57,548 nt of DNA. It comes from Bacteroidales bacterium. Its GTDB lineage: Bacteria > Bacteroidota > Bacteroidia > Bacteroidales > PWNQ01. Position 1 is the first letter of the stretch, and every line of letters begins with the position of its first letter. Both the position numbers and the translations under genes were made by a program. Below the pieces are notes generated by a model. It did no database searches. It was not told the origin of the DNA and was given only the letters and a program-made list of their open reading frames with translations. The stretch lies in contig JAIPAE010000002.1 of assembly GCA_021740245.1 (NCBI GenBank), forward strand, positions 1 through 57,548. The letters run 5' to 3'. Positions 11,948 to 12,132 of the stretch are shown piece by piece.

Positions 11948-12132
11948 GAACCGGGCCATGATTCGCCAGCTGGCGGAACACACACGATGATGATTAAATG
12001 GCGTAATGAGTAATGCGAGAGGGCGAACGAAGCGACTAAAGCGACTTAAGCGAACGAAGAGACGAAGAGACTGAGAGACTGAGAGAAACAACGAACAAAC
12101 AAAGAACAACGAACAAAATTATAAACCGATGA
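11948..12132 (+). repeat. Full-length copy 1 of the modular intergenic repeat family (purine-rich strand on +)
   Basis: GAACCGGGCCATGA-hairpin(TTCGCCagctGGCGGA)-ACACACACG-ATGATTAAATGGCGTAATGAGTAATGCG-AGAGGGCGAACGAAGCGACTAAAGCGACTTAAGCGA(ACGAAGAG)2(ACTGAGAG)2AAACAACGAACAAACA...ATTATAAACCGATGA. Near-identical to 45158..45377 and to the reverse complement of 33902..34101. Confidence 0.8.

Follow-up and report, generated by a model that had tools for sequence, protein, structure and literature searches.

The window analysed here, the whole 57,548-nt stretch of Bacteroidales DNA, harbors three intergenic segments of one purine-rich subfamily, termed units A, B, and C. Unit A extends from 11946 to 12133 on the plus strand and is bounded by ATGAA at 11946-11950 and at 12129-12133; an earlier note on this DNA had found its place correctly (11948-12132), while the ATGAA boundaries put its start at 11946. 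This unit is not located at a gene start, its tail ATG opening MKY* only; with respect to the TPP-riboswitch/TonB-receptor promoter, its position is upstream and its orientation antisense. A TPP riboswitch (11773-11869, minus strand) is situated in front of the gene for the TonB-dependent receptor, and a likely TAnnTTTG promoter box of this gene (TATATTTG) is found between the riboswitch and unit A, which places the unit upstream of the promoter. Unit B (45158-45378, plus strand) terminates in the tail core ATGAA at 45374-45378, and it is within this core that the start codon of a lipocalin gene (45374-45892) resides; the head ATG of the same unit opens a four-codon ORF, MKRT*. An exact-protein look-up of the lipocalin returned no record. 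Unit C (33901-34102, minus strand) has its tail core ATGAA at 33905-33901, and this single pentamer is at the same time the head core of a further unit, C2 (33776-33905, minus strand), such that the two constitute a head-to-tail array.

The purine-rich copies bear out the central claim of the earlier note, a modular, strand-asymmetric intergenic repeat family with three copies at these places, as they are related by both alignment and profile search. In a MAFFT alignment over ~190-220 nt, identity between ACACACACG and the tail amounts to 93.6-95.9%, in line with the ~90-95% outside indels estimated there, and the gaps comprise 16 or 32 columns, that is, multiples of 8-nt units. An nhmmer profile built from A, B, and C retrieved its own three copies with E-values of 1e-63 to 7e-74 and gave weak matches at three sites (9070-9225, 33778-33903, and 48301-48352) that had been taken for partial derivatives. 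These turned out to be complete members of other subfamilies, namely D, C2, and E, which have head and tail in common with A/B/C and carry unrelated middles. C2 features a long-range complement, GCCATGAC...GTCATGGC, together with the motif GAGCTCCATC, and near-identical units of this type occur at the loci L001, L017, L018, L021, and L031 of other genomes and metagenomes. Unit D (9078-9226, plus strand) is a degenerate member with mutated cores (ACGAA and ATGAT) and a GC-rich hairpin, GTTCCCCCGCTGCAAGCGGGGGAAC, ahead of its tail. Unit E (about 48285-48424, plus strand) belongs to a short subfamily and is 79% identical to L040:1085-1197; its tail AATTTAGACATATGAA supplies the start codon of a catalase gene (48420-49856), and its head core is ambiguous, being either ATGAA at 48285-48289 or ATAAA at 48293-48297. 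The six units in 57.5 kb correspond to a density of about one per 10 kb. The tail TTATAAACAGATGA occurs five times in the window versus 0.04 times expected from shuffled sequences, and the composite head pattern four times versus zero; over all head and tail motifs counted, shuffles gave expectations of ~0-0.3. Units measure ~130-221 nt in the window and 86-220 nt in the family, and contain only ORFs of about 45 codons or fewer; the genes downstream of them are functionally unrelated. Directly 5' of unit B, the segment 44930-45160 contains a long inverted repeat, GAGTCCGGTCTAAAAAGACC ... TTTTTAGACCAGACTC, as well as the unit-like motifs ACACAGTAGATGATG and GGGGTGAGTTCCATCCC and a tail-like AATCAAATATAATCATATGAA. 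Judging from these motifs, ~45005-45162 may be a decayed seventh unit, which aligns only ~45% to unit E and was left out of the count; in the relative L032, an alkaline phosphatase gene occupies the position of this segment.

The association with promoter-bearing intergenic regions that had been proposed for the full copies is incidental. A and C/C2 lie upstream of promoters, D is located between convergent genes, and B (lipocalin) and E (catalase) are situated at start codons, such that what the copies have in common is insertion at ATGAA, often that of a start codon. Some further features of the window were recorded along the way. A DUF805b RNA motif (RF02914, 42.5 bits) is found at 47385-47417 (plus strand), upstream of a DUF996-family gene (47683-48030). 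A 17-nt sequence (AAATAACATTGTTAAAA), repeated 2.5 times in tandem at 44726-44767 in the spacer that precedes the hydrogenase operon, could represent an operator, as L032 retains a similar sequence. Finally, a 104-nt direct repeat with 96% identity and a period of 168 nt (57277-57380 and 57445-57548) extends beyond the window's end and probably reflects a repeated protein domain encoded on the minus strand.

Across the family, the head reads ATGAA-(A/C)C..CATGA, followed by a variable, often palindromic stretch and by ACACACACG-N1-6-ATGATTA (diverged in E), and the tail reads ..AAATTATAAACAG-ATGAA. Conserved internal motifs are ACACACACG, ATGATTA, and GAGYTCCATCTGACC, and some members possess a long-range complement around CATGA/TCATG. 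Of the head hairpins emphasized in the earlier note, those of A, C, and E are indeed strong and that of B is AU-rich. Many other members, and the parent element described below, either lack the hairpin or have a version too unstable to fold, and the hairpin sequence is not conserved. Terminal inverted repeats were not found, the head ACGAACATGA.. being unrelated to the reverse complement of the tail CTGTTTATAAT... Likewise, the purine strand of A/B/C is T-poor rather than almost T-free as had been stated, with T's located in ACTAAAG, ACTTAAG, and ACTGAGAG. Since these few T's form TAA/TGA triplets in all frames, the purine-rich middle is not an ORF. It is composed of tandem units that are also detected by Tandem Repeats Finder (8-9 nt) and whose numbers vary from copy to copy as previously described (ATGATGYG zero, two, or three times, RCGWAGAG two to three times, and ACTGAGAG twice in A/B/C); this variation looks slippage-type. 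In L032, a syntenic relative, ACTGAGAG is present three times, and the length of such middles thus differs between relatives as well as between copies. Apart from A/B/C and L032, the purine-rich middle occurs in L001 and, in a related form, in L040, and a counterpart of it in the parent element was not found. From its sequence, we read this middle as a lineage-specific microsatellite filler of 7-9-nt units whose length would change by slippage. An extreme expansion of the microsatellite preceding the tail is seen at L001:1-206, with more than 20 GAACAYK units of 7-8 nt, after which the tail gives a lipoprotein gene its start codon. A different kind of length variation is evident at L014:4716-4903 (minus strand) and L025:4922-5112, where units otherwise near-identical to those of L029 and L010 contain an extra insert of ~55 nt built from GC-rich palindromes (CCTGCCTGCAGGC..GCCTGCGGCAGGCAGG); these units seem to host another small palindromic element nested inside them.

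The origin of head and tail can be traced at L017, where a 416-aa ORF (L017:309-1559) with the domains PF01548 (9e-26) and PF02371 (7.6e-22) begins at the ATG that takes the tail position of a unit. By its domain content, this ORF is a predicted IS110-family (DEDD) recombinase, and the recombinases of parent elements reach 265-282 bits (L017: 265) against NF033542, 'IS110 family RNA-guided transposase', for which the cut-off is 140. Homologs of the L017 recombinase are very numerous. The most informative among them, P0250 (85% identical to L017; NCBI label Perlabentimonas sp.), is found at ten loci with five left and seven right flanks. Here, a near-identical IS begins with ATGAA-ACACCCATGACAATTTTTAGACACACACGAGCATGATTA.., which is 78 nt ahead of the start codon of the recombinase gene, and ends with ..GAAAATATAAACAG-ATGAA, 182 nt after the stop codon, and the flanks diverge precisely outside the two ATGAA-bounded ends. 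The right flanks usually represent host ORFs (MKKAKILLIAIL.., MKNLILAACAVL.., MKKRIVLVLL.., and MKKQTIFLLV..), and public gene calls for L042, L043, L046, L047, and L049 start 178 nt past the recombinase stop, which is the last ATG of the element. In most IS contexts with a following gene, the terminal ATG is the start codon of that gene, always in co-orientation; further cases are DivIC in L052 and L058/L061. The architecture is also retained around P0272 (79% identity) and P0338 (67% identity, Algoriphagus). The parent IS thus measures ~1.5 kb and consists of a left end of 78-95 nt, a gene for a DEDD recombinase of 414-416 aa, and a right end of 182-199 nt including ATGAA. Its ends, ATGAA-ACACCCATGA.. 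and ..ATAAACAG-ATGAA, are not inverted repeats, and ATGAA is present on both sides in every context. With its recombinase domains, lack of terminal inverted repeats, shared core, and sequence- and orientation-specific insertion, the parent IS (L017, L042-L061) shows the hallmarks of the IS110 family. Subterminal inverted repeats of 7-17 bp, as known from the IS1111 type, were not consistently found across the IS variants: a search yielded only AT-rich 9-10-nt matches with one mismatch, at positions differing per variant, and none in P0338. Two irregularities should be mentioned. The 2.1-kb contig of L017 has two identical copies of the terminal 78 nt of the IS right end (L017:1-78 and L017:1667-1744), one of which precedes a C2-type unit and the IS; this reflects a tandem IS/solo right-end arrangement, or else the assembly collapsed here. 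Among the P0250 loci L042-L051, which derive from different samples, the same left flank is combined with different right flanks (L043 versus L050, L045 versus L049), which suggests recombination between IS copies or chimeric assemblies.

The window units can be aligned with the IS ends, head to left end and tail to right end. A head HMM derived from the small units alone matches the IS left ends at E-values of 5e-8 to 7e-8, and the window tail ATTATAAACAGATGAA is identical over 15-16 nt to the right end of the P0338 IS of Algoriphagus (CAATTATAAACAGATGAA). The window heads have motifs rather than long stretches of identity in common with the parent IS variants, the latter coming from other genera. 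A tblastn search of the 57.5-kb window and the loci of its closest relatives detected no IS110 recombinase gene. Given that an IS110-family IS has the same head and tail as its ends, the window repeats can be understood as miniature derivatives devoid of a transposase, and we consider it likely that they are non-autonomous IS110-family elements of a mini-IS or MITE-like kind without inverted repeats, presumably moved in trans. This revises the earlier statement that the repeat was recognizable neither as an IS end nor as an RNA family. The latter part holds, as Rfam 15 gave no match on units or IS ends when the window, ten unit-bearing loci, and four IS loci were searched (at gathering score and at E<=1); the former does not, since an IS110-family IS of other Bacteroidota has left and right ends that match head and tail, and a match to a known IS was among the outcomes that the note itself had named as refuting its reading.

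Compiling the element boundaries, we found ATGAA at 40 of 41 distinct junctions on the left and at 29 of 30 on the right. Outside the left junction, the flank is rich in A, and the first base beyond the right junction is A in 90%. As read from these junctions, the target of both IS and miniature elements is A-rich/ATGAA/A (spelled out as AAAATGAAA), commonly the Met-Lys start of a gene (ATG AAA). In the window, 16 of the 42 long ORFs begin with ATGAA, so start codons make up a large share of the tolerated targets, which would suffice to account for about half of the units abutting a gene. At 12 of the 20 outer right junctions, an ORF of 60 or more codons begins, and most other tails run straight into the head of a next unit. 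The target AAA-ATGAA-A is also similar to the predicted circle junction AACAG-ATGAA-AC, a resemblance noted for other IS110-family members as well (PMC1525189). As the right end plus core resembles the target, new copies can land on the tails of old ones, giving rise to head-to-tail arrays; these are seen for C/C2 in the window, in L028 (three units), L005, and L017, and in the Algoriphagus locus L052, where three small units are arranged in tandem directly before the IS. On the head side, the parent IS variants and all AC-type units make the displaced host ATG the start of a four-codon ORF, ATG-AAA-NNN-NCA-TGA, whose stop codon comes from the conserved CATGA.

The long non-coding right end of the parent IS deserves attention because it is in their long non-coding end that IS110-family elements encode a bridge or seek RNA, and members of the IS1111 group have this end on the right (PMC11208160; PMC11187229). 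RNAalifold predicted two domains for four right-end sequences. Domain 1 has AGGUCG/CUGAUC as its closing stem, and its apical hairpin varies in sequence with five compensatory pairs; the closing stem of domain 2, ACGCUAAG/CUUAGCGU, encloses a large loop. Both contain a junction-like segment. In domain 1, this is ..(A/G)AUGAAA(C/U).., with C where the left end starts with AC and U in Algoriphagus, where it starts with AT; in domain 2, it is ..A(G/U)AUGAAA.., with G where the right end reads ..CAG and U in L017 (..CAT). These matches were read from the sequences and rest on one variant each, i.e. two single-nucleotide differences among four sequences. A segment complementary to the top strand was not identified in the IS right end. 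Taken together, the folding model and the junction-like segments suggest that the right end probably encodes a bridge/seek RNA.

Units of this kind are not confined to the window. A scan of metagenome contigs with the head pattern yielded 30 loci, many of them from saline, soda-lake, and sediment samples and most with units of 86-220 nt, and a scan of species-representative genomes with an interior 21-mer identified one other MAG (L001), in which a purine-rich unit is followed by a C2-type unit. The same head pattern had zero matches in viral contigs, on which ground we rejected a phage origin. Units and the IS110 element co-occur in the Algoriphagus locus L052 and in the metagenome of L017, L018, L021, and L031. 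At orthologous sites, units are polymorphic in terms of presence and absence. The window spacer between the ABC-F and DUF5063 genes, which holds C and C2, has a length of 556 nt, compared with 57 nt in L036 (GCA_964477095.1; DUF5063 82% identical) and 115 nt in L038 (DUF5063 86% identical), where the units are absent; the TAnnTTTG promoter boxes of both genes are retained at the two spacer edges. Outside these boxes, the spacers of L036 and L038 are too diverged to define a base-exact empty site. L032 lacks a unit before the lipocalin gene and instead carries a purine-rich unit on the start codon of the alkaline phosphatase gene, a gene that the window does not have at all. As a side observation, the ABC-F gene of the window (34177-36066, plus strand) contains an in-frame TGA at 34576-34578 where the L036 ortholog has a conserved Trp (..LQAWDYEVK..). 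As other ORFs end normally in TGA, the genome is not recoded, and the codon is a nonsense mutation, a sign of a pseudogene, or a sequencing error.

The close association of IS and units might also be viewed the other way round, with the units representing a host repeat family of REP-like character that an IS110 element merely targets, in which case head and tail would belong to the target. Such behavior has precedent, as IS110-family elements often target repeats (PMC11208160; PMC1525189), with IS621 and ISPpu9 using REPs, and the IS does adjoin unit arrays in L017 and L052. Yet the P0250 IS keeps 78 nt on its head side and 177 nt on its tail side near-identical over ten loci with several different flanks, which means that head and tail travel with the recombinase gene. 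Moreover, this identity includes the stretch from CATGA to ACACACACG that is freely variable among small units, and most IS contexts consist of unique host DNA, the IS, and a host ORF, with no unit sequence outside. A host repeat serving as target thus appears improbable to us. Still smaller is the chance that the units are cis-regulatory 5' leaders of the host, either structured RNAs or chains of mini-ORFs that relay ribosomes through ATGA overlaps. The tail ATG is a gene start in about half of the cases, some members possess the long-range complements around CATGA/TCATG, and a complete ATGA relay can be drawn for L010, L023, L028, and L021; but the relay is broken in A, B, C, L008, L014, L025, L029, and L017, and frames differ between members. 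Copies are also located between convergent genes (D) and upstream of promoters (A, C/C2), the downstream genes are unrelated in function, Rfam is silent, and the ends are identical to those of an IS. A translational relay as a property of the family was consequently rejected, being complete in four members only and broken in A/B/C and many others.

Strand asymmetry, the lack of inverted terminal repeats, a fixed junction pentanucleotide, and a head hairpin in some copies are also reminiscent of single-strand-DNA elements, either PATEs of the IS200/IS605 type or REP/RAYT-type elements. We give this reading hardly any credit, since the non-conserved hairpin is missing or unfolded in many members as well as in the parent, no matching hairpin was found at the other end, and a Y1 transposase was seen at none of the loci, while an IS110 recombinase gene is found between the very same ends. 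Three standard identities were rejected as well: a classical MITE derived from a DDE transposase, for lack of terminal inverted repeats; a REP/BIME, i.e. a GC-rich imperfect palindrome of 20-40 nt, as the conserved parts of the units are non-palindromic and the hairpin is optional and variable; and a known RNA family, in view of the Rfam result given above.

Returning to miniature IS110-family derivatives as the favored reading, we envisage the following scenario. Both the IS and the miniature elements would use ATGAA, by which they are bounded, as the core common to donor and target, and would insert in the orientation of the gene at A-rich/ATGAA/A. The old host ATG would stay in front of the inserted element, and the right end of the latter (..TTATAAACAG-ATGAA) would provide a working start codon. 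The units would have arisen by internal deletion of the IS, which removed the recombinase and RNA genes and left ~50-70 nt on the left side and ~20-30 nt on the right side, separated by filler; in the A/B/C subfamily, the middle would have been replaced by the purine-rich, slippage-variable microsatellite of 7-9-nt units. Recombinase and right-end RNA could then move the miniature elements in trans, as cargo between IS ends. Transposase and seekRNA have in fact been described to be able to move 'a cargo flanked by IS ends' (PMC11187229). Common ends, a common core, abutment on start codons, arrays, and absence at orthologous sites of relatives are direct observations; what we infer is that a recombinase and a bridge RNA, both encoded at another site of the genome, mobilize the elements in trans.

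How does this family relate to described elements? IS110-family elements lack inverted repeats, are excised as circles, and insert into a specific target around a short core (PMC11208160; PMC11187229). Like IS621, ISEc11, and ISPa11 (PMC11208160, PMC11187229), the parent combines a PF01548 plus PF02371 DEDD recombinase with the absence of terminal inverted repeats, and it shares with IS110/IS1111 elements the short core at both junctions, the specific and oriented target, and the resemblance of this target to the circle junction. As in the IS1111 group, its long structured non-coding end lies downstream of tnp (RE > LE). The window units, in contrast to all these elements, have neither a recombinase gene nor a recognizable RNA gene. 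The repeated core comprises 5 nt (ATGAA), with the crossover point lying somewhere within it, compared with the 'core dinucleotide' of IS621 (Durrant et al.); the target is a start-codon context instead of a REP, an attC site, or a transposon end; and the recombinase of 414-416 aa exceeds the ~340 aa quoted for the IS1111 type (PMC11187229). For transposase-less derivatives, the only described precedent that we found is MITEPpu9, the MITE-like module of the IS110-family element ISPpu9 of Pseudomonas putida (PMC12288879). MITEPpu9/ssr9 likewise has IS110-type end sequences at its borders and no transposase, occurs beside the IS or alone, and is proposed to move with the transposase acting in trans, as we do for the window units (PMC12288879). 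It differs in comprising eight copies, in carrying an sRNA gene, and in targeting REPs, as opposed to about one unit per 10 kb, many subfamilies with unrelated middles, arrays, and start-codon targets in our case. For Bacteroidota, the literature searched yielded nothing specific on an IS or MITE that targets start codons.

The mycobacterial IS110-family elements IS900, IS901, and IS902 are reported to insert in a single orientation between the ribosome-binding site and the start codon, at CATGN4-6*CNCCTT. Targeting of the translation-start region in a fixed orientation relative to the gene is therefore a feature shared with this group, but its members insert between RBS and ATG in the opposite sense, whereas the crossover of the elements studied here falls within ATGAA and the element end rebuilds the start. 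We know of no miniature derivatives in the IS900/IS901/IS902 group. As short, high-copy, intergenic elements with conserved end modules and variable numbers of internal units, the units also resemble modular repeats such as pneumococcal BOX, Neisseria Correia elements, and the P. gingivalis MITE with its internal minisatellite (PMC4596501), which are often co-transcribed with their neighbors. The latter three have inverted-repeat ends or unrelated boxA/boxC modules, and in none of them is there an ATGAA boundary or a link to an IS110 recombinase.

The family is thus a variant of a known mobile element and no new class. In practical terms, where genes in these genomes are preceded by inserts of 100-220 nt with ATGAA at both ends, such inserts should be treated as IS110-derived miniature elements and masked, lest they be taken for regulatory RNAs. 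For the field of bridge recombinases, the family offers natural miniature donors, probably moved in trans, a short target that carries meaning, namely the Met-Lys start-codon context, and head-to-tail arrays that arise because a donor end mimics the target. A broader picture, which we put forward tentatively and with more doubt than conviction, is that of a Bacteroidota clade of RNA-guided IS110 recombinases specialized on the start codon, whose insertions would be near-neutral, the right end restoring a translation start and the left end terminating the displaced one after four codons, and whose abundant, hitherto undescribed miniature derivatives would rewrite 5' UTRs and form docking arrays, some of them perhaps keeping bridge-RNA-like modules. 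With every insertion, the host gene acquires a longer 5' UTR and a new sequence immediately ahead of its ATG; as far as can be judged from their positions, the miniature elements could thereby modulate the expression of many genes, in the window those for the lipocalin and the catalase.
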